NCBI GenBank assembly: GCA_018302265.1 | Contig: JAGVZV010000008.1 | Coordinates: 1 to 35,886 of the forward strand | Source: Candidatus Woesearchaeota archaeon | GTDB lineage: Archaea > Nanobdellota > Nanobdellia > SCGC-AAA011-G17 > JAFCDX01 | Direction: 5' to 3' | Length of the DNA stretch: 35,886 nucleotides | Shown here: positions 3,985 through 35,886 of the stretch, piece by piece | Position numbering within the stretch: position 1 is the stretch's first letter | Layout: each line of letters opens with the position of its first letter | The notes under the pieces: generated by a model | The model's input: the letters and a program-made list of their open reading frames with translations, nothing else | The model's database searches: none | What the model was told of the DNA's origin: nothing | Made by a program: the position numbers and the translations under genes

Positions 3985-4828
3985 TTCTATGTCTGATTGC
4001 GGTTTTAATGCTAATAAAATCTCAAAGGCTATTGAAATTCTAAAAGAGGTAAAAAAAGAAGATTGTAAATTATTCTTTGGTCTGGCTGGGGCAATGGTGC
4101 CTGCAGGTATGAAAAATATTATTGTTGACATGATCAATAAAAATTTAATCAGTGTTTTTGTTACAACTGGAGCAAATATAACCCATGATCTGATTGAAGC
4201 ATTAGGAAATAAGCATTACAAGGGAAATGCAAATATTAATGACGCTGAATTGCATAAGAAAAAGATTGACAGGATTTATGATGTTTTCATGGAATCTAAA
4301 GTCTATCAGGATTTAGAGGATTTCTTCAATAAGAATTTTGACGCACTAAAAGATAAAACAACAATAAAAGAATTTTTATGGGGGATTGGTAAATTAATCA
4401 ATAAAGAGGATTCTATACTGACTGCTTGCTATAAGAAAAAAATACCCATATTCTGCCCTGCTTTAAGCGATTCAGGGATAGGATTGATGATATGGAATAA
4501 TCTAGTTAAAAATAAAAAAATAAATTTTAGTGAGTTTGAGGATCTAAAAGAGATGCTTGACATTGCATGGACAGAAAAGAAAAAAGCTGTTTTTTACGTA
4601 GGTGGCGGTGTTCCAAAAAATTATATACAGCAGGCGATGCAGTTTTCAACTCCAGCATTATATGGAATACAGATAACAACAGATAATGCTTCATTTGGTG
4701 GAAGTTCTGGAGCTCCATTGAAAGAAGGGATTTCATGGGGCAAAATGAGCGAGAAGGGAAAATTTGTTAATATTTATTGCGATGCAACTATTGCATTGCC
4801 TTTAATATATGCAGGATTTAAAGAATAA
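3920..4828 (+). CDS. dys: Deoxyhypusine synthase
   Basis: Motifs [32 protein letters not shown] and the EGISWGK catalytic-Lys region. The 65-nt overlap with pdaD suggests a later true start (e.g. ATG 3962). Confidence 0.9.
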
Positions 4829-5153
4829 TTACCTTACATAGGTGATATCTAGAATAATTCCTTAAATTAAAATCAATATCCCCATCTTCATCAATCTCTT
4901 GTAAGCCATCTAACCTCCCAAAACACAAAAAATCACCTCCTTTTTTTATTTTAGGTATAAGAAATCTTTCTAGACCGGAAACCTGCTCAACCCAACCCCC
5001 GTTTATTCTTATATCCCCATCCATTTTAAGAACATCGTGTTCTTTAAGATCCAAATAACCAATTATTTTATATCTTAAGATTCCATCTTTAATGAAATAC
5101 TCATCATCCACCACTTTATGCTCTTCTTTTCCGTCTAAAGAAACCAATTTCAT
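4818..5153 (-). CDS. Hypothetical protein
   Basis: 111-aa ORF convergent with dys. No motif recognised. Confidence 0.4.
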   Translation of the reverse strand: MKLVSLDGKEEHKVVDDEYFIKDGILRYKIIGYLDLKEHDVLKMDGDIRINGGWVEQVSGLERFLIPKIKKGGDFLCFGRLDGLQEIDEDGDIDFNLRNYSRYHLCKVIIL

Positions 5154-5362: not shown

Positions 5363-6967
5363 ATGAGATATTACGAAGACCCTTTATTAAATTCTAAAAG
5401 ATATACCTTATATGATGGGGTTCTGAATCTATATTCTGCTCTGTTGAATAAAAAAGATTTTGAATCTGATAGAATACTTAATAATTTTCCTTATGTAGTT
5501 ATAGACAATATAGAATTGAATCAACAACTTATAGACTCATTAAAAAAGTATATTGGATGTAATATTAGTAAGGGAGCAATAAAAGGATGGGTATTAAATA
5601 GCAAATTTCCTTTGCCTCTTTTAAGAGTCATTTCTTTAAAGGCACCTAACCCAGAAAAAATTCTTTCTAATTTAATTAAAAGTATAAAATCAGTTACAAG
5701 TAATTTTGGAAATACTATAAAATTGTCTATTAAATATTCTGATTTGTTAATGAATAAACATATTTATTTCCACGGTTATTTATTAGGTGATGGTTGCATA
5801 TCTGATGACCTAATTAAATTAGCTGATGGACATCAAGATAAGTCTAAGATTCATTATTCAAAGCAACATATTGGTATGTTTAAAAAATATCTTAAGATAT
5901 GTTATAATTTGAATTCTAAAATTAAGCGAGTTGGTAATTGTTATCATCTAATAGCTTCAAGAAATAAATTTTTATCTAGGTATATTAAATTTTTTTATGG
6001 TTATGATAAAGACAAAGAAATAATTAGAGTTCCAGATATTATTAAAGATGATAGAGAAAAAATAAAGATATTTTTAAGAGGATTTTTTGATGCCGATGCA
6101 GGAATTAGTGAATTGTATAATTCAGTTATTTTAAAATCCAAGGATCACAATTTTTTAAAGTTTTGTAAGCTTTTTTTGGAAAAAGAAGGATTATTTTTGG
6201 ATAATGTTAAATTTGACTCTACTGGCGTATCATACATTACTATAAAATCTACAGAGTTTTTAAAATATGCGTATACAATTGGTTTTAATCATTCTCGCAA
6301 AAAAGAAATTTTATTGAATAGACTTAAGAAAAATTGTCCATTAAATGTATTTCGTGGGGTAAGAAAAAAATATTTGATAGATAGTTTGTATTTTGATTTT
6401 ACTATAATTCCAGATATGAGATTAACAGGACTACAAGATTTTTTTAAGAATATGAGATGTGATATTGGCACCCAAGAGGAAGTTTCTAAACTATTAAAAA
6501 TTCCCAGGAGATATGTAGGAAAATATGAAAATGGATTGTACTCTATTCCGATTGATATTTTTCTAAATTTAATCCAGATTAAAAATAAAATAAGGCTAGC
6601 AGATATATTTTCTAAAAATGACGTTAAATTTTGTATAAGCAAAAATAAAGGAGCTATAAAATTGCCATTATCAATAAATGATATAAATTTTGATATTTTA
6701 AAATATATGGCACCTACTCAGCATAAGATAATTATAAAGCGTTATGGTATTATTAATATAACTAATAAAATAAACAAAGAAATACTCTTTAAAAGAATAG
6801 AAGATTTCTTTGGTGTTAAAATTGTTAAAGATTCAGACTCTCACGTTATATTTAACACTACATTGGCTAGATTTTTGAATACATTTTTTGTATATGAATC
6901 TGCTTGGAAAGGGTTAAATGATAAAGAAAGAATTGATTTAGATAGAAAATTACAAATTCAGATGTAA
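5363..6967 (+). CDS. Free-standing double-motif LAGLIDADG homing-endonuclease-like protein with a C-terminal HTH
   Basis: Two LAGLIDADG motifs (HGYLLGDGCI and LRGFFDADAGI) about 100 aa apart. An XRE-like HTH (GTQEEVSKLLKIPRRYVGKYENGLYSIP) lies downstream. Not embedded in an intron or intein. Confidence 0.7.
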   Translation: MRYYEDPLLNSKRYTLYDGVLNLYSALLNKKDFESDRILNNFPYVVIDNIELNQQLIDSLKKYIGCNISKGAIKGWVLNSKFPLPLLRVISLKAPNPEKILSNLIKSIKSVTSNFGNTIKLSIKYSDLLMNKHIYFHGYLLGDGCISDDLIKLADGHQDKSKIHYSKQHIGMFKKYLKICYNLNSKIKRVGNCYHLIASRNKFLSRYIKFFYGYDKDKEIIRVPDIIKDDREKIKIFLRGFFDADAGISELYNSVILKSKDHNFLKFCKLFLEKEGLFLDNVKFDSTGVSYITIKSTEFLKYAYTIGFNHSRKKEILLNRLKKNCPLNVFRGVRKKYLIDSLYFDFTIIPDMRLTGLQDFFKNMRCDIGTQEEVSKLLKIPRRYVGKYENGLYSIPIDIFLNLIQIKNKIRLADIFSKNDVKFCISKNKGAIKLPLSINDINFDILKYMAPTQHKIIIKRYGIINITNKINKEILFKRIEDFFGVKIVKDSDSHVIFNTTLARFLNTFFVYESAWKGLNDKERIDLDRKLQIQM

Positions 6968-8775: not shown

Positions 8776-8904
8776 ATGGTAAAATGCTCAAAATGCGGTA
8801 AAAACATAGATATAGTGTTTCTTGAGAAGATTAGAGGAACTTATACTGGAAAAGGCAACAGAAAGAAAGCTATATGCTCAGAATGCCAGAAAACGCCACA
8901 GTAG
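8776..8904 (+). CDS. Possible 42-aa zinc-ribbon protein
   Basis: MVKCSKCGKNIDIVFLEKIRGTYTGKGNRKKAICSECQKTPQ* has a CxxC...CxxC pattern. It is below the ORF-track size cutoff. Its last 10 nt overlap the tRNA-Thr 5' end, so it may be spurious. Confidence 0.3.
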   Translation: MVKCSKCGKNIDIVFLEKIRGTYTGKGNRKKAICSECQKTPQ

Positions 8905-8979
8905 TTCAGTCTGGTAGAATATCTGCTTCGTATGCATAGAAAAAGCAGAAAGTCGCAGGTTCAAATCCTGCCTGTGGCT
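8895..8979 (+). tRNA. tRNA-Thr(CGU) with an 11-nt intron at the canonical 37/38 position
   Basis: Cloverleaf by hand: acceptor GCCACAG/CTGTGGC, D arm GTTC-AGTCTGGTA-GAAT, anticodon stem TCTGC/GCAGA, T arm GCAGG-TTCAAAT-CCTGC, discriminator T. The loop reads TT-CGT-A followed by TGCATAGAAAA. The BHB-like motif is relaxed (3-bp central helix), so anticodon identity is less certain. Confidence 0.7.
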
Positions 8980-11077: not shown

Positions 11078-12524
11078 TCAACCTTTAATTACAGAAAGTG
11101 GTGAAACTCTTACGACCTTGCTTCCCAAACCAACACCATGAGAAACTTCTATAACTGACTCTATTTCCTTGTACACTCCAGGCGCTTCTTCAGCAAGTCC
11201 ATCCCAAGAACCAGATTTTACTTCTATACCTTTTTCATGCAATTCTTTTTTAATAGTTTCCCCTCTGAATTGTCTTAAAGCTTCATGCCTTGACATCACT
11301 CTACCTGCACCATGAGGAGCACTACTAAAAGAAATCTCTTCTGCTTTGTTAGTTCCAACTAAAATATATGATGGATTACCCATCGATGAAGGCACAAGTA
11401 CCGGCTGTCCTGTTTTTTTATAAATCTCAGGTAATTCATCTCGTCCAGGACCAAAAGATCTTGTAGCACCTTTACGCATAATCAATACTTCTCTCGTTTT
11501 TCCATCTATTAAATGTTTTTCGAATTTTGCCACATTATGCGCGACGCAATATAATAAATTTATTTTTACCTTACCAAAAACTTTTTCAAAAGATTCACGT
11601 ATCCAATGCATTATCATCTGTCTATTTGCAAATGCAAAATTAGTTGCTGCACTCATTGCACCATAATATTTTTGCCCTAAATCAGAATTGATTGGTGCAT
11701 TTATCAGTTCTCTGTCAGGCAAATCCTTAAATCCATATTTCTGCTCCATTAGTTTTATGTAATCAGATGCAACTTGATGCCCAAGACCACGACTACCACA
11801 ATGAATTTGTATAACAACATTCTCTGGGTTAATACCCCATTCTTTAGCAATTTTATCATCAAATATCTTATCCACTTTTTCAACTTCCAAAAAATGATTT
11901 CCTGATCCTAGAGAACCAAGCTGAGGCATCCCACGTTTTAATGCTGTATCTGAAACAGCACCTGGATCTGCTTTTGGCATACAACCATACTCTTCTGTTC
12001 TATCAATATCTTCTTTTATGCCATAACCTTCTTTTACTGCCCATTTAGTCCCATTTTTTAGAACCTCCATCAAAATATCCTTTGTTACTCTTAGAGTTCC
12101 CTTGCTTCCAAGACCGGATGGAACATTCTTGTATACTTCATTGATTAATTGATCTCTTTTTTTTAGAAATTCATTTACAGAAAGGTCTGTTAAACAGCAT
12201 CTTACCCCACAATTGATGTCGTCTCAGGAAATTAAAGATTCTTTAATTTAATCCTACGCCACCAGGTGAGATTATTCCTTCCTGCATATCAAATGCAGCT
12301 ACACCACCGATTGGAAAACCGTAGCCTGAATGTATGTCTGGCATAGCCAAAGCACGCTTTTGGATTCCCTTCAGTGTTGCAACATTTGCTAGCTGTTTTA
12401 TTGCCTCTGGCTCTACAGCATCAAGGAGCTTTTTAGATGCAAAAATAACTCCTGGAACCAGCATAGAGCCTGTTTTAGGCAATTCCCATTCATATTCCGA
12501 TATTTTCTTTAACTGGTCTTTCAT
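11078..12524 (-). CDS. rtcB: RtcB RNA 3'-phosphate ligase (tRNA-splicing ligase), interrupted by a 28-nt putative BHB intron; proposed CDS = complement(join(11078..12222,12251..12524))
   Basis: N-terminal ORF 12243-12524 ends ...[19 protein letters not shown]...ISPGGVGLN*. The downstream frame (+1) reads *DDINCGVR... and continues into ORF 11078-12073. That ORF carries all RtcB metal/GMP His motifs ([29 protein letters not shown]). The joined length is 1419 nt (472 aa). Confidence 0.9.
12223..12250 (-). other. Putative 28-nt bulge-helix-bulge (BHB) intron within the rtcB mRNA
   Basis: On the minus-strand RNA: outer helix UGGUGGCG/CGACAUCA (7 of 8 pairs), 3' bulge AGA, 4-bp central helix UAGG/CCUG, 5' bulge AUU, inner 9-bp perfect helix AAAUUAAAG/CUUUAAUUU with loop AAU. 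Cutting after the second nt of each bulge removes exactly 28 nt and joins GGA-U|AC-GAC, giving G-Y-D. Confidence 0.6.
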
Positions 12525-12539
12525 TGTTGATAATAAGAT

Positions 12540-13583
12540 TTATGTATTTATTAACATTTCGCTGATTTTTTCTCTTAGTTTATATGTATCAGCCCATTTT
12601 GCATAAGCCTGCCATCCTTGATAGCTTTCTAGAATCTTTTCTTTTGTTATTTGTTTATTTTTATACTGATTTATTTTTATCAACATTTTTCTTATATTTC
12701 TTTTCCTTAATAGCCTATAATAATAAAAATTCCTAAAACCAATAAAATCTATTCCTCTTGATAAAGAGATTACTTTAGACTTTTCTTTGTGCAATTCCAG
12801 CTTTAATTCTTCTTTTAGAAAGGCGTCTATTTGTTCTTTCCATTTGGTTAATTGCTCTTTAGAATTATGCAAAATCACAAAATCATCAACATATCTTATA
12901 TAATATTTAGCTTTAAGTTTATGCTTAACAAAATAATCCAATTCATTGAGATAAACATTTGCAAAGAACTGAGAAGTCAGATTTCCTAGGGGCATTCCTA
13001 TATCCTCTTTTTCCTGTCCATTTATTAATATTAGTTTGATTAAATTGATTACTTTTTCATCTGCTATCTTCTTCTCTATTATTTTTATTAAAATGTTATG
13101 ACTAACTTCATAAAAATAATGCTTTATATCTCCTTTGAAGCAATAGCCTGAAACAAAATTATCATCAAAAATATCAGAGATTAACTTTCCATTATTTGAT
13201 GCCTTTCTCTTGAACAGATTGAATCTTTTAACTGCAAATAAATTTCCTTTGTTCTTTCTTGAAGCGCATGAATCATGTATAAATATCTTCTCAAAAATAG
13301 GTTCTATTATGTTGCATAAAGCATGATGGACTATCCTGTCTTCAAAAAAGGAAACGTGTATTACCCTTGTTTTTGGGTCTCTGATAATAAATCTCTTTAG
13401 CGGTCTTGGCTTGTAGGTTTCACTTAATAATCTTTCTTGTAGTCTTAATAGATTTTCTTTTAAATTATATTTAAATTGAATTACGTAATCTTTTTTGGTC
13501 TTTCCTTTTCTAGCTTTTTTGAATGCTAGCAATAAATTATTATAAGAATAAATTTTATGATATAAATTATTATGAGTATGCAT
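12540..13583 (-). CDS. DGR-type reverse transcriptase
   Basis: RT motifs RDPKTRVIHVSFFEDRIVHHAL, GDIKHYFYEV, GMPLGNLTSQFFANVYL (the [LI]GxxxSQ signature typical of DGR RTs), YIRYVDDFVIL (YxDD), KSKVISLSRGIDFIGF. About 350 aa with no maturase or endonuclease domain. The stop lies 15 nt upstream of the rtcB ATG. Confidence 0.9.
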   Translation of the reverse strand: MHTHNNLYHKIYSYNNLLLAFKKARKGKTKKDYVIQFKYNLKENLLRLQERLLSETYKPRPLKRFIIRDPKTRVIHVSFFEDRIVHHALCNIIEPIFEKIFIHDSCASRKNKGNLFAVKRFNLFKRKASNNGKLISDIFDDNFVSGYCFKGDIKHYFYEVSHNILIKIIEKKIADEKVINLIKLILINGQEKEDIGMPLGNLTSQFFANVYLNELDYFVKHKLKAKYYIRYVDDFVILHNSKEQLTKWKEQIDAFLKEELKLELHKEKSKVISLSRGIDFIGFRNFYYYRLLRKRNIRKMLIKINQYKNKQITKEKILESYQGWQAYAKWADTYKLREKISEMLINT

Positions 13584-13610
13584 TTTATTGCCTTAGCAGC
13601 ATAGACCATT

Positions 13611-13708
13611 CCGAGCCCAGAAGTCCCGTTCTTAATGAATTTCGAGTTCTGAGGATCCCTATTGCAATTCAAGTTAGCCCTATCCGAGTTAGCATTGAAC
13701 CCCGCAAC
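13611..13708 (-). repeat. DGR template repeat (TR): core 13643-13708 plus 3' extension with an IMH*-like TTCTGGGCTCGGAATG (IMH = initiation of mutagenic homing)
   Basis: The minus strand reads gtt gcg ggg ttc AAT gct AAC tcg gAt Agg gct AAC ttg AAT tgc AAT Agg gat cct cAg AAC tcg AAA. It is rich in AAY codons. The 66-nt core aligns without gaps to all three VRs. Confidence 0.85.
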
Positions 13709-13954
13709 AGTTAAAGTAGCACACTAATCAAATATTCACGGCTATCTTAATTTTCATTCAGAAACTTTCCCAAGGCTCCTTCATTATTACTGGTTATCAT
13801 AGCTGTATTTTATAACCGGAATCTTTTGGATTTGGTTGTAATCAGCATGCATGTGGTCTAAGTTATTGATCCTCACTAACTTATTGGGTAAGTTTCAAAT
13901 CAATAGAGCTAAGACATTTTTATAGAATAAAATTAATTAATAAAGCTTCCTAAA

Positions 13955-14752
13955 TTACGCGCCTTCGGCGCACCCAAACACCCCGAGCCCAGAATACGAG
14001 AACCGAGGATCCCAATTGCAACCCAAGTCAGCCCAATCCGAGTAAGCATAGAACCCCGCCACAGCACCATCTTCTGGTTTCCAATATCTAATATTTTCTC
14101 CTTGTCTATACTCTTGAGTATTATGTTTTGCATTTGGATTTGCTAATCCCTGATTATTTAGATTGGTAAAATCTATATAACAGTCATTCATTAGGCACGG
14201 ATTTAAATCTTCAACTGTTGTTACAAGTTTTCCATTATTTAACCCATTTATTGTTTCAAGATGCCATTTTTTCTTTTTATTTATGCATTTTCCATTAAGC
14301 CATGTCCACACTCCTAGTTTTTTTGGGTCATATATAGCTATGTGATCTTTAGTTAGATGTAGATACATATTCAGTATTTCCTCTTCTCTAATTCTTGAGT
14401 TTTCTGCATTTAGTACAGGTGTCTTATTTTTGTAAGCATCTAAAATTTTATTGAAAAAATGCATGAATATTCTTGGAGTGGGTACATACAGTTTATTTCC
14501 AAGCAATTTTGTATGGGTATCTTCGTAATTCATGTTATTGTATCCTGGCAGTTCAAACTTGGATATTACTGCTCTTTTTCCATATAATCCATTTGTATCT
14601 AATTGAACATATTCTTTTGGATCTTGTATATCAAATTCTCCAGAAACATTTGGATCATCTACTTTTTGTGCTAGTATAGAAGTCTCTTTTAGATCTGGAT
14701 TATGGGTTAATTCTGCTAATCTTATTAGATTTGGATTAATTCTCTTATTCAT
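13955..14752 (-). CDS. DGR variable protein, target 3 (C-terminal VR1); putative C-type-lectin/DUF1566-like variable domain
   Basis: C-terminus ...NIRYWKPEDGAVAGFYAYSDWADLGCNWDPRFSYSGLGVFGCAEGA*. VR1 occupies roughly the last 36 codons. The N-terminus shares the NPNL.RLAE..HNPDLKETSILAQKVDDPN module with its paralogs. No signal peptide. Confidence 0.8.
   Translation of the reverse strand: MNKRINPNLIRLAELTHNPDLKETSILAQKVDDPNVSGEFDIQDPKEYVQLDTNGLYGKRAVISKFELPGYNNMNYEDTHTKLLGNKLYVPTPRIFMHFFNKILDAYKNKTPVLNAENSRIREEEILNMYLHLTKDHIAIYDPKKLGVWTWLNGKCINKKKKWHLETINGLNNGKLVTTVEDLNPCLMNDCYIDFTNLNNQGLANPNAKHNTQEYRQGENIRYWKPEDGAVAGFYAYSDWADLGCNWDPRFSYSGLGVFGCAEGA
13979..14062 (-). repeat. VR1 (variable core 13997-14062) plus IMH-like TTCTGGGCTCGGGGTG (13979-13996)
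   Basis: Hand alignment to the TR gives 12 mismatches at TR adenines and one T-to-G at the 5' edge. A GC hairpin GCGCC-GAA-GGCGC (minus-strand reading; 13959-13971) follows. Confidence 0.85.
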
Positions 14753-15603
14753 TTTTGCTCCTTAATTTTTGCGATACGCACCCCGAGCCCAGAATACGAG
14801 AGCAGAGGATCACTAAGGCAATCCAAGAGAGCCCTACCCGAGGAAGCATAGAACCCCGCAACAGAATTATTATCCTTCATTGGACGCCAATAATTAATAT
14901 CATCTCCTTCTTTTGTTGGCATTCCCTGCTTGTTGCAACCGGATAAATCTATTTTACAATTATCCATTAGACATTCTTCTAATAATTTCCTATTTCTTGG
15001 GATTAAATTACCATTTGCATCCCGGACATGATTATAATAAATATATAAATTACCTTTTTCACTTTCCTGTATTTCCTTTCCTGCCTTATTTAAATATTTA
15101 AAATCAGCATCAAGCCATTCTGCTCTTCCAGGATTTCTTACACCAATAATTTCATCTAAAATTCTTTCCAGTTCTTTTGAATCTATTTTATTTTCATTAC
15201 CATCAAATGCTTTTCCTGATTTAAGAAGACTAATAAAATCTATCCCCTGCCTTGGATTAAGAGTAAATCCATTTAATTCTAAATTCAATCTTAAGGAATT
15301 TATCCAATTTATGTTTCCAATATAATCTCTTCCATTCTTTTCCTTTGATGTATTTGATAATTTTAATCCCAAAATATTTGCTACTTTTTCAACTTCTGGA
15401 TTATAAGATAATCTGTATTTTGAAACTAACAAATCAGGATATTCATAAGTTCCATGTCTTCCTTCAAGAATAATATAATCCTGTGGGTTTTGAACATTTA
15501 TGTTTGGTGTTTGTATTGGCTGTTGCACTAGTGAAGTATCCACTTTTAGATCTGGATCATATGTCTGCTCTGCTAGTTTTAGTAAATTTGGGTTTATTTT
15601 CAT
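14749..15603 (-). CDS. DGR variable protein, target 2 (C-terminal VR2)
   Basis: C-terminus ...DINYWRPMKDNNSVAGFYASSGRALLDCLSDPLLSYSGLGVRIAKIKEQK*. ATGA overlap with target 3. The N-terminal MKINPNLLKLAEQTYDPDLK is identical to target 1. Confidence 0.8.
   Translation of the reverse strand: MKINPNLLKLAEQTYDPDLKVDTSLVQQPIQTPNINVQNPQDYIILEGRHGTYEYPDLLVSKYRLSYNPEVEKVANILGLKLSNTSKEKNGRDYIGNINWINSLRLNLELNGFTLNPRQGIDFISLLKSGKAFDGNENKIDSKELERILDEIIGVRNPGRAEWLDADFKYLNKAGKEIQESEKGNLYIYYNHVRDANGNLIPRNRKLLEECLMDNCKIDLSGCNKQGMPTKEGDDINYWRPMKDNNSVAGFYASSGRALLDCLSDPLLSYSGLGVRIAKIKEQK
14779..14862 (-). repeat. VR2 (variable core 14797-14862) plus IMH-like block (14779-14796)
   Basis: 14 mismatches at TR adenines and one G-to-T (agg to agt). 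The 43-nt 3' flank 14758-14800 is identical to 17156-17198. A small hairpin TGCG-TAT-CGCA (minus-strand reading; 14770-14780) and an AAGGAG sequence precede the next ATG. Confidence 0.85.
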
Positions 15604-17150
15604 TGTATTGATTTCTTGAGTTCCCCCATTGTTATGCTTTTAATGTCATCCTGTGAATGAAGTGGGAGAATAGCTACATTTTTCTTATCTTTCAACCTTT
15701 CTGACAGATTTTTTATGTTCCCAGAATCTGTATAGAACAAATGAACCCTGTGAACATTTGGCAATCCAGAGATGTAAGACAAAAATTCATCTAAATTGTG
15801 AATTCCCATATCAGAAACAACGCTTATGTCAATGCTCTTTTGCGCTTTAACCATATTTTCTATTGTTGATGTGCTGAATACAGTTCCGCCTGACTGATAT
15901 GTTCTTATTATTTTGTGGATATTTTCCTTTTTATTGGAAGGACCAAAAACCAGATTGTCTGCTGAAAAATTATAAATTGTTACCTTAGATCCATTATTGA
16001 GATAGGCATTTGCTATTACAGTTGCTCCTAAAACAGGTATTGAAATATTTTCATCAGGGTTTGGCATGCTCCCAGATGAATCAATAACAATCAAGCTATC
16101 CGGAATTTCAAAATAGGCTGTTGTAACCTCTCCCTCTTTCTTAATCCATTTTTGTGTTATACCTGGAATTATTCCTGGACTTGAAAAAGGATCAAGATCA
16201 TTTATGTGATCATCGAGACTAAATTCCTCATGTGAGTGTGGATATAAACTTCCATTCTTTTGTATTTGTTTTTTTCTAATAGGTATTGAAAAGTTCTCTG
16301 CAAGTGCTGAATAGAAATTTCTTGCTATAATTATATTTCCCTTCTCAGTTCCAGCGCTTTTTCCTGATTCTTGTTCTTTTAATTCCTTTCCCTCATTAGA
16401 TTTTTCTAAAAATTGTTTTACTACATCCTCAAATTCTCCAGGCTGTGATTCCTGGGCAAACTGCCTTATTCCCTCTCTTACTTGATTATCAGAAAAACCA
16501 GAGCCAGAATCATGATCTTTTGATTCATATTTTTCATCCTGATGTTGGTCCATATATTCTTTAATAACACCAATAAATTTCCTAAAATTATTTTCTTCAT
16601 TTGTTTTATCTAAATAATCTATTCCACTTAATCTTTCAATTAAATTATTTTCTTCTTTCTTAAGTTTTAATCCAAAATCTGTTTTCCATAATTTTTGACA
16701 TAATCCAAAAAATATCTTATCCAAACTTTTTGATTTTATAGCTTCTGATTTTAGAGATTTTGGTATGCTCTCGTAACCCTTATTCTCAACAAGATTTGTA
16801 TTATTTTGTACATTCAAGAATGCCTCTCTTGAATAATAAGCCTTCTGCCCATAAAGACTTTCACTGGCGATTTTTTGCAATCTTAACAAATTTAAAACAG
16901 ATCCAGGATAATCTATAAAATGCCCTGTTTCATGCCCTAAAATTGCATTGAATGATGTAGATTCATCGCAATCAGATTTCTTCAGTTCTTGGACATAATC
17001 TGGATTAATAGTAATTTGGAGATTTTCAAAATTAAATTGTCCATTTGGAATATCTTGTGATAATTTTGGCTGAGGCAATTGAGGATAGTAAAAATCCCTT
17101 CTTACTTCCTGCCATTCTCTTTCCATTATATTTTGTAAATCTTCAGTCAT
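15600..17150 (-). CDS. Protein with an N-terminal HExxH metallopeptidase-like domain and a C-terminal VWA domain
   Basis: AILGHETGHFIDYPGS contains HExxH. The C-terminal LIVIDSSGSMPNP carries the DxSxS motif of the metal-ion-dependent adhesion site (MIDAS), with downstream SGGT and SDMG. The architecture recalls the DUF2201-type VWA partners of MoxR ATPases (from memory, needs an HMM check). 4-nt overlap with target 2. Confidence 0.75.
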   Translation of the reverse strand: MTEDLQNIMEREWQEVRRDFYYPQLPQPKLSQDIPNGQFNFENLQITINPDYVQELKKSDCDESTSFNAILGHETGHFIDYPGSVLNLLRLQKIASESLYGQKAYYSREAFLNVQNNTNLVENKGYESIPKSLKSEAIKSKSLDKIFFGLCQKLWKTDFGLKLKKEENNLIERLSGIDYLDKTNEENNFRKFIGVIKEYMDQHQDEKYESKDHDSGSGFSDNQVREGIRQFAQESQPGEFEDVVKQFLEKSNEGKELKEQESGKSAGTEKGNIIIARNFYSALAENFSIPIRKKQIQKNGSLYPHSHEEFSLDDHINDLDPFSSPGIIPGITQKWIKKEGEVTTAYFEIPDSLIVIDSSGSMPNPDENISIPVLGATVIANAYLNNGSKVTIYNFSADNLVFGPSNKKENIHKIIRTYQSGGTVFSTSTIENMVKAQKSIDISVVSDMGIHNLDEFLSYISGLPNVHRVHLFYTDSGNIKNLSERLKDKKNVAILPLHSQDDIKSITMGELKKSIQ

Positions 17151-17152
17151 TT

Positions 17153-17917
17153 TTACTCCTTAATTTTTGCGATACGCACCCCGAGCCCAGAATACGAGCC
17201 CCGAGGATCCCAAGCGCAACTCAAGAGAGCCCTACCCGAGAAAGCAACGAACCCCGCAACACGTTCTTTTTGTTTTTCTAGTTTGGAATTAACACGCCAG
17301 ATATGAGCATCCTTTTCTGTTATCCATTTGTAAATATTATTTATTTCTTGTAAATTATCAGATCCTAGTAATGCCTTGAATGTATTTTTTTCTTTTAATT
17401 TTTTTACCCATTCATCTGGTCCAACAAAATCATCAGACACATTATATTGATCAGGCATTTTATAATTGTGAATTACTATATCTTTATTTGGAGAAGGCAT
17501 ATATTTTATTCTTGTTAAAGTCATTAACCAATTCTTGAACATTTTTTCTTTAATGAATTGCTTTGCCTGTTCTACTAAGTGCTTATTAGAAGAATCTCTG
17601 TTCTGATACAATGCCTGAAATAATGAATGATAGAGAGGAAAATCTCCTAGCTTAAATTCATTTGTTTTAGAGTATTCTGACCACTGGTCTTGTGTCTTAG
17701 AATCTCCATTATCCAATAATTCTTTTTGCAAGTCCACATGGTAAATTCCATCTCTGTAATTTACTCCTGTTACTGCCCAAAAATTAGGATTGTTGTTTAT
17801 ACTAAATTCTTGGGAAATATTTGGATCAGCTACTTTTTGTGCTAGTATAGAAGTCTCTTTTAGATCTGGATCATATGTCTGCTCTGCTAGTTTTAGTAAA
17901 TTTGGGTTTATTTTCAT
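17153..17917 (-). CDS. DGR variable protein, target 1 (C-terminal VR3)
   Basis: C-terminus ...EKQKERVAGFVAFSGRALLSCAWDPRGSYSGLGVRIAKIKE*. The N-terminal module is shared with targets 2 and 3. 4-nt overlap with the upstream AAA+ gene. Confidence 0.8.
   Translation of the reverse strand: MKINPNLLKLAEQTYDPDLKETSILAQKVADPNISQEFSINNNPNFWAVTGVNYRDGIYHVDLQKELLDNGDSKTQDQWSEYSKTNEFKLGDFPLYHSLFQALYQNRDSSNKHLVEQAKQFIKEKMFKNWLMTLTRIKYMPSPNKDIVIHNYKMPDQYNVSDDFVGPDEWVKKLKEKNTFKALLGSDNLQEINNIYKWITEKDAHIWRVNSKLEKQKERVAGFVAFSGRALLSCAWDPRGSYSGLGVRIAKIKE
17177..17260 (-). repeat. VR3 (variable core 17195-17260) plus IMH-like block (17177-17194)
   Basis: 16 mismatches to the TR, all at TR adenines. Hairpin TGCG-TAT-CGCA (minus-strand reading) at 17168-17178. 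Confidence 0.85.
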
Positions 17918-19263
17918 TCTAACTCCTGTCCTAAATCCAAGAATACAGGATGACCCTTGCCGTTTGCAGCATATAATTTGGCTGCTTTTTTAGCTTCTTC
18001 CAATTTATTTTTTTGTATACAATTAATAACAGCCTGATAATTATTTCTGCTTTCAAGGAATCTTTTTTTAACGCCAGGCAGTTCGCTTGTTCCATCTCCA
18101 AGCAATGTTTTTACTGCATACAACAATAATGGATCTTTTCTGCTATCATCTTTTAATTTACTAGCAACACCATCAGTTAATCTTAACCTGTGCCATAATG
18201 CATAAGGAGCTACAGTCAGCATGTGCTCTAGATTTACTTCTTTTAAATCCTGCAACCATGCTAATGCCTGTGAATATCTTACTATGCTTTTATCCTCTCT
18301 TCTGCTTCCAGAACCCTCTATTAAATTGTATAGATAATGTCCCTCTTCTCCATTTATTGGATCATTGCTTCTTTTCTGCCCAAATTTAGGATGTGTGTTT
18401 AATTCTGAAATCAGGAAACTCAAATAAGTCAAAGCATCCTTGTCTAGTGCAATCTTTCCTATTTCGCTGTCTATTTCATTTAGTTCTTGCTCTGTCAGTG
18501 TCTCTAATCCATTTTGCTTTAATTCTTTTCTGAACACTTCAGATAAATCATTAAGGCTATTCCTTATTTCTTGATATGGCTTTCCTGAATTTAGCAATTC
18601 AATTATTTTATTTGAAATTTCAGGATTTTTTAATATAGCATCTTTAGCACCATAATAATCCTGGCTAATTGCTATAGCATTTGCTACTCCTGGGAATTTG
18701 CTTTCTGTAGCTACATCAAATCTATCTAAAATAGGGGGTATAAGTGAATTATTTCCTCTATCTTCATAATTACATGTAGCAAAAAATGGTTGTTTATCTT
18801 GGCTTATATGCTCATTAAGATAACCCCATTCTCCCCTATCTAATCCATCCAAAAGCATAGACTGGCTTGATTCTGGTATTCTATTAAATTCATCAACTAT
18901 TTTTTGTGGCACTAAAACAAAGTGTTGCCATACAACATGTTCCTGACCCTGATGCATTTTACCATAATCTGGTCTTCCAACTATCTTTTCTTGTGTTAGT
19001 TGTGGACTTCCACGGATAACCGCCCTTCTTACAATTTCAATTGGTAAATTATTAAATAAAGAATGCAAGTATTCTGCGCTTGTAGTCTTACCCCCACCAT
19101 ATTCACCAAATAATATTTGTCTCCCTCTATTAAGCTCTGTTAATACACCAAATAATAGAGAAGAATTGAATTTATCATTGCCAATATTTAAATCATCTCT
19201 ACATAAATAAAAATTATTCCTAATCTGTTCATATAAACCCTTAACCTTATCTTGATATTTCAT
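17914..19263 (-). CDS. MoxR-like AAA+ ATPase
   Basis: Walker A GEYGGGKTT, Walker B KIVDEFNR, sensor-like FFATCNYEDRG and an RFD Arg. The C-terminal half is helical. Confidence 0.75.
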   Translation of the reverse strand: MKYQDKVKGLYEQIRNNFYLCRDDLNIGNDKFNSSLLFGVLTELNRGRQILFGEYGGGKTTSAEYLHSLFNNLPIEIVRRAVIRGSPQLTQEKIVGRPDYGKMHQGQEHVVWQHFVLVPQKIVDEFNRIPESSQSMLLDGLDRGEWGYLNEHISQDKQPFFATCNYEDRGNNSLIPPILDRFDVATESKFPGVANAIAISQDYYGAKDAILKNPEISNKIIELLNSGKPYQEIRNSLNDLSEVFRKELKQNGLETLTEQELNEIDSEIGKIALDKDALTYLSFLISELNTHPKFGQKRSNDPINGEEGHYLYNLIEGSGSRREDKSIVRYSQALAWLQDLKEVNLEHMLTVAPYALWHRLRLTDGVASKLKDDSRKDPLLLYAVKTLLGDGTSELPGVKKRFLESRNNYQAVINCIQKNKLEEAKKAAKLYAANGKGHPVFLDLGQELE

Positions 19264-19600: not shown

Positions 19601-20239
19601 ATGATTCCGCTAATATTAAAATTGAAAAAAGCCCAGCATAAAGGTATTGCCCAAGCGCAGGATTTGATAATTAAAGAATTATATAATGTATTTAATGAGG
19701 CAGTTTTGCATGGAGGAACCAGTATCTGGAGATGCTATAAAGGGAATAGATTTTCAGAGGACATCGATGTTTATATCCAAAAAGATATAAAAAAATTAGA
19801 TGAATTATTTGACAGATTTAAAAAAATAGGGTTTATAATAGAAAAAAGAAAGATAACAGAAAACAGCCTGTACTCCAATTTGAAATTTAACAGAATTTCT
19901 GTAAGATTTGAGGCTTTATTTAAAAGAATAAATGGTGCACTGATGGAATATGAAAATAGCGATGGAAATGTTATTATGGTATATTCATTAACCCCAGAAG
20001 AGTTAATAAAAGAAAAGGTAAATGCTTATTTAAACAGGAATAAAATAAGGGATTTATATGATATATTTTTCTTATTAAAATATATTAAGGATAAGATAAG
20101 CATAAAAGAAAGTTTATCCAATCTAATAAAAAATTTTAAAGCTCCAACAGATGAAAAAGATTTAAAGATTTTAATTTTAGAGGGAATTGTTCCAAAAGCA
20201 GAAAAAATGATGGAATATATAAAAAATAAAAATGGGTAA
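19601..20239 (+). CDS. AbiEii-like nucleotidyltransferase (type IV toxin-antitoxin / abortive-infection toxin family)
   Basis: LHGGTSIWRCYKGNRFSEDIDVY resembles the GGTAL..CY...R.S.D[IL]D NTase motif of AbiEii/DUF1814 proteins. Confidence 0.6.
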   Translation: MIPLILKLKKAQHKGIAQAQDLIIKELYNVFNEAVLHGGTSIWRCYKGNRFSEDIDVYIQKDIKKLDELFDRFKKIGFIIEKRKITENSLYSNLKFNRISVRFEALFKRINGALMEYENSDGNVIMVYSLTPEELIKEKVNAYLNRNKIRDLYDIFFLLKYIKDKISIKESLSNLIKNFKAPTDEKDLKILILEGIVPKAEKMMEYIKNKNG

Positions 20240-20819: not shown

Positions 20820-21224
20820 TCAAATATCAACAACAACCTGAACCATATAAGGCTTTTCCTTTATCTCCATTTCATTGTATGTAACTGCCTTTATGTTTAT
20901 TTTTATATCATATTGATTATTGAATTTATCCCCAATCAGTTCAGCAGTTAATTCATTCCCATCAATTTTAATATTTCTAATTTTATGCAATAAAAACTTC
21001 TCTGTATCCAGCAATATAAGCAATTGTTCAAGAAAATTATATAATAAAGACTTTTTATCTGATCCTTTTACTTTTATCTTATGTGTTAATTTTGATTTTA
21101 TTTTATTATAATCTGTCATTACAGAAGTCATAGCCAAAGCTGCATTTGAAAATGCTTCTTCTAGTGATTTACCAAATGCCTGGAATTTAGCATCTGCTCT
21201 GTGCTCTAGAAATTTGTATTTCAT
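20820..21224 (-). CDS. Archease (RtcB activator)
   Basis: MKYKFLEHRADAKFQAFGKSLEEAFSNAALAM and the C-terminal KAVTYNEMEI... are archease hallmarks. 134 aa. Confidence 0.85.
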   Translation of the reverse strand: MKYKFLEHRADAKFQAFGKSLEEAFSNAALAMTSVMTDYNKIKSKLTHKIKVKGSDKKSLLYNFLEQLLILLDTEKFLLHKIRNIKIDGNELTAELIGDKFNNQYDIKINIKAVTYNEMEIKEKPYMVQVVVDI

Positions 21225-22212: not shown

Positions 22213-22304
22213 TGGGCCCGGAGGGATTTGAACCCTCGGCCTTCGCCTTGTAAGGGCAACGTCTTAACCATTGTCCATCAAATAAGATTCTGGACCACAG
22301 GCCC
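22213..22304 (-). tRNA. tRNA-Val(UAC) with a 19-nt intron in the D-loop (after G15; 22271-22289)
   Basis: Acceptor GGGCCUG/CGGGCCC, anticodon arm UUGCC-CUUACAA-GGCGA, T arm GAGGG-UUCAAAU-CCCUC, discriminator A. The D region GUCC-AG[AAUCUUAUUUGAUGGACAA]UGGUUA-AGAC becomes a canonical AGUGGUUA D-loop after excision. GUCC/GGAC forms the 4-bp central helix, flanked by 3-nt bulges AGA and AAU. Confidence 0.8.
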
Positions 22305-22401
22305 AATATTGAATGAAAAATATCTTTTAAAAAGGTTTTGTTTAGTTATCTTACAGCACAAACACAAGGTTTATAAATAAATCTCTAAAATAGATAGGAT
22401 A

Positions 22402-32235: not shown

Positions 32236-33043
32236 TTGAAAATGGCATATTCAGAAAATGCAGATGTGATAATTATTGAAGCAAATTACGACAGAACATC
32301 TTCATATGGAAAGGGTTCTAACAAAGCACCAAAAGCAATTAAGAAAATTTTTGACAACCAAATTGAAATTTATGAGAGAATTACAGGATTAAACCCGGCT
32401 GAAGATCTTAGAATCGAATTTCAGGATTTGGGAGATCTAAACACATTATCTCCTGAAAAAATGGTCAGTAAAATAAAAAAAGTGTTTAAAAATTTATATA
32501 AAAAAAATAAATTTATTATTACACTGGGGGGAGAGCATTCTATTACAAACGGGCCTCTTGAAGCAATAAGCGAATTAAGCAAGTCTTCAGATATCACGGT
32601 AGTGCAGATTGATGCGCATTTTGATTTAAGGCCAGATGATTCAGATTATAGTCCAAGACCATGGGGAAAATACAAGAACTTATCATGGTAAATTAGAATT
32701 AGAATTTGCCAAAAATAATAATATAAAGTTCTTTGAGTGGGGAAAAGATGGAGATCCAAGAATAAAAAATATAATAAAAGCTATCCCAACAAAGAATGTT
32801 TATTTGACAATAGATGTGGACGGATTTGACCCATCTGTAATGCCCTCAACAGGAACTCCTGTTCCAGATGGAATACAATGGAGATATGGCATGAATCTAT
32901 TAAAAGAGATTTTTAATTCAAAAAATGTGATAGCAGCGGATATAGCAGAAGTCATACCTGAAAGAAGCACAACCTACAATGCAGCCCAATTATTGTATTA
33001 TTTGATAGCACTAAAGCAAAAGGATATTCTTGCAAAAAAATAA
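32236..33043 (+). pseudogene. speB: Agmatinase/arginase-family gene split by a +1 frame change (ORFs 32236-32691 and 32636-33043)
   Basis: Part 1 has GGEHSIT and QIDAHFDLR. Part 2 has TIDVDGFDPSVMPSTGTP and ADIAEVIPE. The frames overlap at 32636-32691. The segment normally between the SH(A/G) and GIRS regions looks shortened. Confidence 0.7.
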
Positions 33044-35796: not shown

Positions 35797-35879
35797 GCGG
35801 TTTTAGTTCAGTGGTAGAATGCGAGATTCCCATACGTTGGAAAGATCTCGAAATGCGGGTCCGATTCCCGCAAACCGCA
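35797..35879 (+). tRNA. tRNA-Gly(CCC) with a 12-nt intron at 37/38
   Basis: Acceptor GCGGTTT/AAACCGC, D arm GTTC-AGTGGTA-GAAT, anticodon stem CGAGA/TCTCG, loop TT-CCC-A then TACGTTGGAAAG. Central helix TTCC/GGAA with 3' bulge AGA. T arm GCGGG-TCCGATT-CCCGC, which has an unusual C at position 55. Confidence 0.85.
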
Positions 35880-35886
35880 CTTTTAG

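Follow-up and report, generated by a model that had tools for sequence, protein, structure and literature searches.

Bulge-helix-bulge (BHB) introns are well described in archaeal tRNA genes, where non-canonical and relaxed (HBh'/hBH) motifs also occur (Marck and Grosjean 2003; Fujishima and Kanai 2014, PMC4090602). In protein-coding genes the precedent is the BHB intron in the cbf5 pre-mRNA of Crenarchaeota (Watanabe 2002; Yoshinari 2006; Yokobori 2009, PMC2738675), and reviews and primary papers up to 2025-2026 in the searchable literature mention no host of an archaeal pre-mRNA intron other than cbf5, as a first-pass annotation of the DNA described here had also held. No report of an intron in rtcB, the gene for the 3'-phosphate RNA ligase RtcB, was found in the literature searched, and a 2026 survey of complete Nanobdellota genomes scores split genes as assembly frameshifts. 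Here we analyze a stretch of 35,886 nt (the window) from a Candidatus Woesearchaeota archaeon (GCA_018302265.1, contig JAGVZV010000008.1), a metagenome scaffold with a GC content of 32.5%, in which an rtcB gene is interrupted by 28 nt. All coordinates are whole-window positions unless stated otherwise, and the rtcB mRNA corresponds to the minus strand. Comparison of this gene with its relatives makes it highly probable that the 28 nt at 12250..12223 are a spliced archaeal BHB intron in the rtcB pre-mRNA of a Woesearchaeota/Nanoarchaeia-type DPANN archaeon. As this intron recurs in relatives, which have another one besides, both a dead gene and an assembly error are very unlikely.

The interrupted rtcB gene and its predicted intron

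The rtcB gene extends over 12524..11078 on the minus strand, and the interruption at 12250..12223 both places a stop codon in frame and shifts the frame. Read without splicing, the ORF from 12524 gives a 93-aa N-terminal product that runs through ...ISPGGVG to L-N-stop (UAA at 12245..12243) and so ends inside the putative intron. After the interruption DINCGVR picks up in a different frame and the reading continues down to 11078, with the downstream RtcB motifs, including PHGAGR, undamaged. Exact removal of 12250..12223 (UAAAUUAAAGAAUCUUUAAUUUCCUGAG) joins GGA-U to AC-GAC and yields an open reading frame (ORF) of 472 aa. The spliced product matches the Pfam RtcB profile PF01139 over positions 1-426 of 426 (E 3e-163) and aligns without a gap across the junction to the Pyrococcus horikoshii RtcB 1UC2 (query ISPGGVGYDINCGVR, 1UC2 ISPGGIGYDINCGVR; E 4e-159). 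The Tyr at the splice junction is the same residue in 1UC2, and the metal-binding and guanylylation motifs as well as PHGAGR align to it. Alternative deletions of 25-31 nt leave a stop in place, alter the junction residue or lose a conserved residue. Hence, once the 28 nt are removed, the host gene is predicted to be a full-length RtcB 3'-phosphate RNA ligase. The gene is laid out as follows.

12251..12524, minus strand: rtcB exon 1, codons 1-92 plus the base U of the Tyr93 codon, defined by the ORF and its translation and by the Pfam RtcB and 1UC2 alignments of the spliced product.
12223..12250, minus strand: predicted BHB mini-intron of 28 nt, UAAAUUAAAGAAUCUUUAAUUUCCUGAG, which holds the UAA at 12245-12243, whose removal gives a 472-aa RtcB and which has homologous introns in relatives.
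11078..12222, minus strand: rtcB exon 2, the bases AC of the Tyr93 codon and DINCGVR... to the stop, with a ratio of nonsynonymous to synonymous substitution rates (dN/dS) of 0.10-0.20 against intron-bearing relatives.

The transcript across the interruption can be folded into the strict hBHBh' form, with a 4-bp central helix (H), two opposite 3-nt bulges, and outer (h) and inner (h') helices of at least 2 bp. Its predicted parts are:

12257..12264, minus strand: outer helix h, 5' strand, exonic, UGGUGGCG, with 2 bp beside H, one G.A mismatch and 5 bp; not conserved in relatives.
12253..12256, minus strand: central helix H, 5' exonic strand UAGG, 4 bp; all 11 distinct variants pair here throughout (100%), with compensatory changes.
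12250..12252, minus strand: 5' bulge AU|U, with the predicted 5' cut at 12251/12250; a 3-nt 5' bulge is also present in the relatives' variants that were folded.
12229..12249, minus strand: inner helix h' of 9 bp (AAAUUAAAG/CUUUAAUUU) with a 3-nt loop AAU; four of the four scored pairs change on both sides.
12225..12228, minus strand: central helix H, 3' intronic strand CCUG, with one U.G pair that is U-A in relatives with CCUA.
12222..12224, minus strand: 3' bulge AG|A, with the predicted 3' cut at 12223/12222; the tRNA-Gly intron of the window has the same AG|A bulge.
12214..12221, minus strand: outer helix h, 3' strand, exonic, CGACAUCA, pairing with 12264-12257.

The cut rule used throughout is the established one, cleavage after the second base of each bulge, while the register elsewhere was set from the protein junction. 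Applied in silico to the BHB of the window, this rule removes exactly the frame-restoring 28 nt. Most of this had been anticipated by the first-pass annotation. Its two-frame rtcB, with the stop at 12243-12245 and DINCGVR in the other frame, is recovered by the ORFs and translations of the minus strand, and the intactness of the remaining hallmarks by the 1UC2 alignment. The bulge spacing that it had likened to that of the tRNA-Gly intron indeed recurs there, together with the cut rule. Likewise, the predicted removal of 12223-12250 to give an in-frame GGVG-Y-DINCG is matched by the gapless 472-aa ORF, and the aromatic residue it expected at the junction is the Tyr of 1UC2 and of the GGN-TAY of intron-less orthologs.

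A loose scan for BHB motifs (a 4-bp H in which G.U counts as a pair, h no shorter than 2 bp and h' no shorter than 3 bp) returns 883 matches on the plus strand of the window alone. Such a motif is common here and is therefore by itself no evidence, so a test with fixed cut sites was used instead, in which every position in the window was combined with every intron length from 20 to 40 nt, giving 1.5 million cut pairs. The combination of H with h' of at least 4 bp, which is the weakest version seen in relatives, is found in 5.4e-4 of the cut pairs, falling to 8e-5 when h of at least 2 bp is added. With h' of at least 8 bp and h of at least 2 bp the fraction is 2e-6, that is, three cut pairs, two of which are alternative registers of this very intron. 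As the geometry is rare and the frame could be restored by no more than a few cut pairs, it is very unlikely that the window intron alone arose by coincidence; this count gives substance to the first-pass argument that a random insertion would hardly have both this geometry and this outcome. A further 28-nt stretch with full BHB geometry is found at 4849-4876 on the minus strand (GGGA/UUCU, bulges UA|U and AG|A, h of 4 bp and h' of 7 bp); it sits in the 3' part of the unannotated ORF 4818-5153 and may be a chance occurrence.

Predicted introns at two tyrosine codons among relatives

Relatives were collected from the cluster members of the N-terminal fragment, from the fetched contigs and loci, and by tblastn scans; the nearest named ones are Woesearchaeota/Nanoarchaeia. 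Among the cluster members of the N-terminal fragment a second break point is seen, after ...MPDIHSG. The two positions and the loci in which each is occupied are:

Site 1, Tyr67, HSG|Y|GFP: a 30-nt family in L002-L009, L170-L175, L010, L011/L090 and L097; an unrelated intron of 32 nt in L058; an unrelated intron of 26 nt in L059.
Site 2, Tyr93, GVG|Y|DINC, the site of the window: 28 nt in the window, L002-L009 and L170-L173; 33 nt in L175; an unrelated intron of 26 nt in L058.

Of these, L011/L090 belong to the Nanoarchaeia metagenome-assembled genome (MAG) JBAZJB01 and L097 to the MAG JAQUOT01. Across the relatives the introns measure 26, 28, 30, 32 or 33 nt, and all combine a 4-bp H with an inner stem of 4-11 bp. 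The same cut rule restores the frame and a Tyr codon split U|AY for every one of them. Their removal gives complete ORFs of 472-476 aa in the window, L170, L058 and L059, with no other stops or frameshifts, and intron-less orthologs read GGN-TAY-GGN at site 1 and GGN-TAY-GAY at site 2. The site-2 intron of L002-L009 has one G-to-A change, which turns the central-helix U.G into U-A, and in the 33-nt intron of L175 the stem is altered through compensatory substitutions.

Covariation was assessed in an alignment of 11 distinct variants, each row consisting of flanks, H, bulges and the four initial pairs of h', with GAAA in place of the variable loop; its register was taken solely from the protein-derived junctions and not from structure. 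Standard pairs occupy 94.5% of the cells, against 70% in column shuffles (none of 500 is as high) and 29-57% after displacement of the partner by 1-3 columns. The covariation score is likewise 0.745 against 0.254 for the shuffles (again 0/500) and 0.06-0.17 for slid partners. H and h' are paired in 100% of cells, and in six of the 10 pairs both partners vary. At site 1 the exonic strands of H, namely CAGG, GGGG and AAGG, follow the codons, while the intronic strands CCUG, CUCC and CCUU compensate. Both the presence or absence of the intron and compensatory changes in its helices, which the first-pass annotation had proposed looking for in orthologs, are thus found.

On a neighbor-joining tree the states of the two sites are patchy: the window lacks the site-1 intron and has that at site 2, its nearest relatives have both, site 1 only or neither, and L059, with site 1 only, lies beside the intron-less L017. 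Because of this patchiness the intron states imply repeated gain or loss on the sequence-based tree. The intron-less L189, which is 83% identical, shares the synteny archease...rtcB-Dus-acetyltransferase. From these comparisons, the window intron appears to be part of a small group of mini-introns, located at Tyr67 and Tyr93, that come and go between closely related lineages. In GTDB representative genomes, the site-1 family was recovered only in the two known Nanoarchaeia rtcB loci, the site-2 pattern gave one chance match in a bacterium, and there was no sign at the stringency used that either family has spread to other genes.

Some candidate introns were discarded. What looked like a third intron in L002/L003 lies where the contig ends and reads as normal, if diverged, coding sequence. 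Short RtcB fragments on long contigs of other lineages (P0139/L191 and P0214/L192) have plain 1-nt frameshifts or multiple errors, and as negative controls two frameshifted rtcB genes of other lineages showed no frame-restoring BHB. L190 (P0130), considered as a spliced transcript of L170, is instead a different allele that lacks introns and has an intein; it lies on a contig of 980 nt, and its exon 1 is 94% identical to that of L170.

Other insertions occur in the same genes. An in-frame intein of ~1.39 kb follows DINC in the rtcB of L097 (JAQUOT010000001.1, 1294-4134), L145, P0053 and L190. As L097 has the site-1 mini-intron along with the intein, its product would require RNA splicing and then protein splicing. 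In L170 (1967-2769), L171 (1797-2599) and L181 (1859-2757; all minus strand, locus coordinates), the 3' end of rtcB is overlapped by a 467-aa LAGLIDADG_3 ORF that runs antisense to it.

Weighing the splicing interpretation

Several observations weigh against splicing of the 28 nt. The first-pass annotation had drawn the BHB by hand, and all its parts (outer and central helices, bulges, 9-bp stem and 3-nt loop) are present, but the minimum free energy (MFE) structure from RNAfold is a BHB shifted by one base, with AGGA/UCCU as its central helix and a 26-nt intron at 12249..12224, which would leave a frameshifted product. Within the 28-nt family, this register gains ~1.5 kcal/mol in stability over the 28-nt one, in the window and in L002 alike. 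Single-sequence fold z-scores are modest, at -2.7 for the window and -0.3 to -3.1 for relatives. Several relatives have a weak outer helix or none (h of 0-2 bp, with 73% of cells paired), and in unconstrained folds the site-1 3' splice site appears as a 1-nt bulge or an internal loop and not as a clean 3-nt bulge. The relaxed motifs of the relatives would need an EndA, the tRNA-splicing endonuclease, of broad specificity, such as has been reported from DPANN lineages. Finally, no endA gene lies within the 36-kb window, and the protein collection holds no spliced-junction or intron-less protein of this allele.

The junctions that the two registers predict are:

Predicted spliced junction, 28-nt register: GGTGGCGTAGGAT|ACGACATCAATTGTGG.
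Predicted mis-spliced junction, 26-nt register: GTAGGATT|GACGACATC.
Predicted circular-intron junction: TTTCCTGAG|TAAATTAAAG.
Predicted RtcB peptide across the junction: GGVGYDINCGVR.

Both registers are geometrically valid BHBs, and together with the greater stability of the shifted one this lends some color to the idea that the element is an attenuator, in which the BHB is cut mainly in the 26-nt register to give a non-productive mRNA, with productive splicing as a minor outcome. We regard this as improbable. The in-frame register of the 28-nt type is the only one common to all site-2 variants, since by inspection of its sequence the site-2 intron of L058 is unable to form the shifted one, and it is for this reason that the comparison with L058 favors the in-frame register. 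Moreover, the intronic G-to-A change in relatives strengthens the central helix of the 28-nt register, and the purifying selection on exon 2 requires productive splicing.

That selection also bears on the possibility of a pseudogene, in which a small palindromic insertion killed rtcB and the BHB-like fold is a coincidence of AT-rich hairpins. The frequency of loose BHB-like motifs in the AT-rich window, the modest z-scores and a plainly frameshifted gene of the arginase family in the same window all point in this direction. Against this, the window, L002 and L170, which share homologous introns, show an overall dN/dS of 0.10-0.17 at an overall dS of about 0.8, and exon by exon dN/dS stays at 0-0.2 for a dS of about 0.8-1.4. 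The ratio is 0.00-0.07 upstream of the window intron (exons 1 and 2 of the two-site layout) and 0.10-0.19 downstream of it (exon 3 of that layout), and overall it is 0.18 against L058. These ratios indicate that all rtcB exons are under purifying selection and, being low in all of them, that the gene has not been dead since the shared insertion; the first-pass annotation had named the same insertion accompanied by further decay of rtcB in relatives as the refuting case, and the opposite is seen. A dead gene would also have to accommodate the lack of further stops or frameshifts in the restored ORFs, the unrelated interruptions of 26-33 nt at just two codons, all of which restore U|AY under one cut rule, the covarying base pairs and the tRNA introns of the window, which imply that a ligase is needed. 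Hence, a pseudogene is very improbable.

A third alternative dispenses with RNA splicing altogether and supposes translational recoding, with ribosomes bypassing or reading through the insert as in phage T4 gene 60. The resemblance to gene 60 is superficial and lies in the stop shortly after a GGA codon and the stable hairpin in the gap. There is no GGN landing codon at the 3' end of the gap to match the take-off GGA, bypass would not rebuild a Tyr codon split U|AY at both sites in every variant, and the site-1 inserts have one to three in-frame stops. Further, the covariation of the intronic H strand with the exon codons reflects a constraint on recognition of an RNA structure and not on decoding. 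We consider recoding exceedingly improbable.

The likelihood that the 28 nt are an assembly or sequencing artefact is negligible: the window is a metagenome scaffold, but the identical 93-aa N-terminal product recurs on at least 16 contigs from ~10 samples or assemblies made with different assemblers, 10 of the 10 loci fetched have the identical 28 nt and the same neighbors (a reverse transcriptase (RT) upstream and Dus downstream), and diverged relatives have diverged versions of the insert. Samples from the Rifle aquifer (for example SAMN03842437, SAMN03842442 and SAMN03202996) are among those in which this population occurs. A self-splicing group I or group II intron is ruled out by the size of the insert, only 28 nt, and by an Rfam scan of the window that found no ribozyme, and two separate polypeptides are implausible, since GGVGYDINCG itself is split by the break and no start codon is available to the downstream piece until residue 142.

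Genomic setting, proposed mechanism and relation to known systems

The window contains further interrupted RNAs. The tRNA-Gly gene (35797-35880, plus strand) has a 12-nt intron after position 37, with the central helix UUCC/GGAA, bulges CA|U and AG|A and no inner stem; the anticodon stem serves as the outer helix, and the cut rule used for rtcB is consistent with this gene. For its anticodon ARAGORN gives tcc, while CCC fits better. In tRNA-Thr(CGU) (8895-8979, plus strand) an 11-nt insert in the anticodon loop has a central helix that pairs at three of four positions. A tRNA-Val(UAC) (22213-22305, minus strand) missed by ARAGORN is covered by Rfam at model positions 8-63 only; ~20 additional bases separate its acceptor stem from its D-arm and are probably a non-canonically placed intron, and brute-force placement of an intron with ARAGORN in this tRNA was too permissive to inform. 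The RtcB cofactor archease is encoded at 20820-21224 on the minus strand, ~8.3 kb from rtcB, whereas in relatives it adjoins or lies near rtcB (L002/L003 1264-1668, L189 1274-1681, L191 1569-1991). As the window has both interrupted tRNAs and archease, a splicing pathway is probably needed in this organism.

The gap between archease and rtcB in the window is filled by a retroelement and its target genes, an AAA ATPase (17914-19263) and an AbiEii-type toxin gene (19601-20239). The retroelement, at 12540-17200 on the minus strand directly upstream of rtcB, is a diversity-generating retroelement. Its RT (12540-13583; Pfam RVT_1) has an LGNLTSQ motif, and an Rfam RT-16 RNA lies at 13711-13914, which besides the tRNAs is the only Rfam match in the window. 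A template-like repeat at 13625-13710 has diverged copies at 13979-14064 and 14779-14864, situated at the 3' ends of the ORFs 13955-14752 and 14749-15603, and another that starts at 17147; the mismatches between repeats fall mostly at template adenines. In L002/L003 a mere remnant of the RT C-terminus is found upstream of rtcB.

The frameshifted gene mentioned above, of the arginase/agmatinase family (32236-33043, plus strand), is read in two frames that cover Pfam profile positions 1-130 and 164-276. Used as a negative control, the gene has neither a BHB nor any other structure that would restore its frame, and its fold z-score is -0.6. Its split is a plain frameshift, pseudogene or error. 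Elsewhere in the window, a 534-aa ORF at 5363-6967 (plus strand) has a LAGLIDADG-like domain (residues 235-280) as its sole Pfam match and may be a free-standing or intein-derived homing endonuclease.

Based on the predicted fold, we propose that the transcript would pair its exonic UAGG with the intronic CCUG, leaving two 3-nt bulges and a 9-bp intron hairpin. EndA would then cut after the second base of each bulge, generating 2',3'-cyclic phosphate and 5'-OH ends, and RtcB, aided by the archease encoded in the window, would join GGA-U to AC-GAC. This joining would recreate the Tyr93 codon beside the Asp/Cys metal-binding motif. As only the spliced mRNA would encode active ligase, new RtcB should depend on the RtcB already in the cell. 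Making the ligase thus probably needs pre-existing ligase, which holds if this is the only ligase gene of the genome.

A more far-reaching proposal, which we offer tentatively and think somewhat doubtful, is that rtcB is the sole 3'-phosphate RNA ligase gene of these small DPANN genomes, so that its synthesis is strictly autocatalytic, and that in addition the mini-introns are mobile between the two AGGAU|A sites and have spread between lineages with co-conversion of the exons. The exon context AGGAU|A is common to the two sites, and shuffling indicates a modest similarity between the introns they hold (p about 0.003-0.005). Between the spliced coding sequences of the window and L002, identity is 93-96% over the first 270 nt around the introns and ~70% near the 3' end, in contrast to a flat 70-80% against the intron-less L112. 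The mosaic identity and the similarity of the sites hint at recombinational spread with co-conversion. The shared context and modest intron similarity recall the intron transposition that Fujishima et al. reportedly proposed in 2010 for tRNA genes of Thermoproteales. If rtcB is the sole ligase gene, a cell that loses RtcB could not regain it, which would amount to a protein-primed, heritable state of positive feedback. If the introns are mobile, DPANN would be a natural system for the gain and loss of EndA-type introns in protein-coding genes.

Within the searchable literature, rtcB would be the second host gene for EndA-type introns among archaeal protein-coding genes, and it lies in the distant superphylum DPANN. 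Its unusual traits are a host that encodes the ligase of the same pathway, two sites in one gene and, in some relatives, an intein four codons away. The two positions and the polymorphism in presence or absence among close relatives make it possible to study comparatively how such introns arise, move and are lost. The predicted self-referential dependency, with new ligase made through old, would bear on the regulation and inheritance of essential RNA-processing machinery, and the crowding of introns and inteins bears on why selfish elements settle in the most conserved part of essential genes. In addition, since gene callers split these rtcB genes into two or three fragments and the survey of Nanobdellota counts split genes as frameshifts, rtcB may be mis-scored as absent or broken in DPANN genomes.

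Like the cbf5 intron, the rtcB intron is short, lies inside a coding sequence that it interrupts by breaking the frame or carrying a stop, is patchily distributed in a way that implies gain and loss, and resides in a gene for an RNA-processing enzyme. Relaxed motifs, as at rtcB site 1, have been reported for cbf5 introns too. The cases differ in that the cbf5 intron is found in Desulfurococcales/Sulfolobales and the rtcB intron in a DPANN lineage, and in that rtcB has two intron positions, sometimes both occupied, with an intron and an intein together in L097. Furthermore, rtcB encodes the ligase that completes the very splicing reaction. Splicing of cbf5 has been shown experimentally, whereas that of rtcB is predicted from sequence. 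With the tRNA BHB introns it shares the 4-bp helix, the 3-nt bulges, the cut after the second bulge base and the size range; unlike in these, the substrate is an mRNA, the exonic H strand is bound by codons and there is no tRNA body to aid recognition.

RtcB takes part in mRNA splicing elsewhere. The splicing of XBP1 in metazoa and HAC1 in yeast by IRE1 is independent of the spliceosome and leaves 2',3'-cyclic phosphate and 5'-OH ends, and in metazoa RtcB seals the XBP1 mRNA, in which loss of a 26-nt intron shifts the frame. However, IRE1 cuts twin stem-loops as a stress-regulated switch and the RtcB mRNA is not its substrate, whereas here EndA is predicted to act on a BHB. The inteins at DINC|x of RtcB (in Pyrococcus RtcB, L097, L145, P0053 and P0130) are selfish insertions in the same conserved active-site segment, four codons from the window intron, and like that intron they need precise removal for an active enzyme. 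The difference is that the intein is in frame and the protein splices itself, while the 28-nt element is out of frame and must for that reason be removed at the RNA level. The rtcB intron would work in the manner of the cbf5 and tRNA BHB introns and is not a member of the cbf5 case, because gene and lineage both differ.

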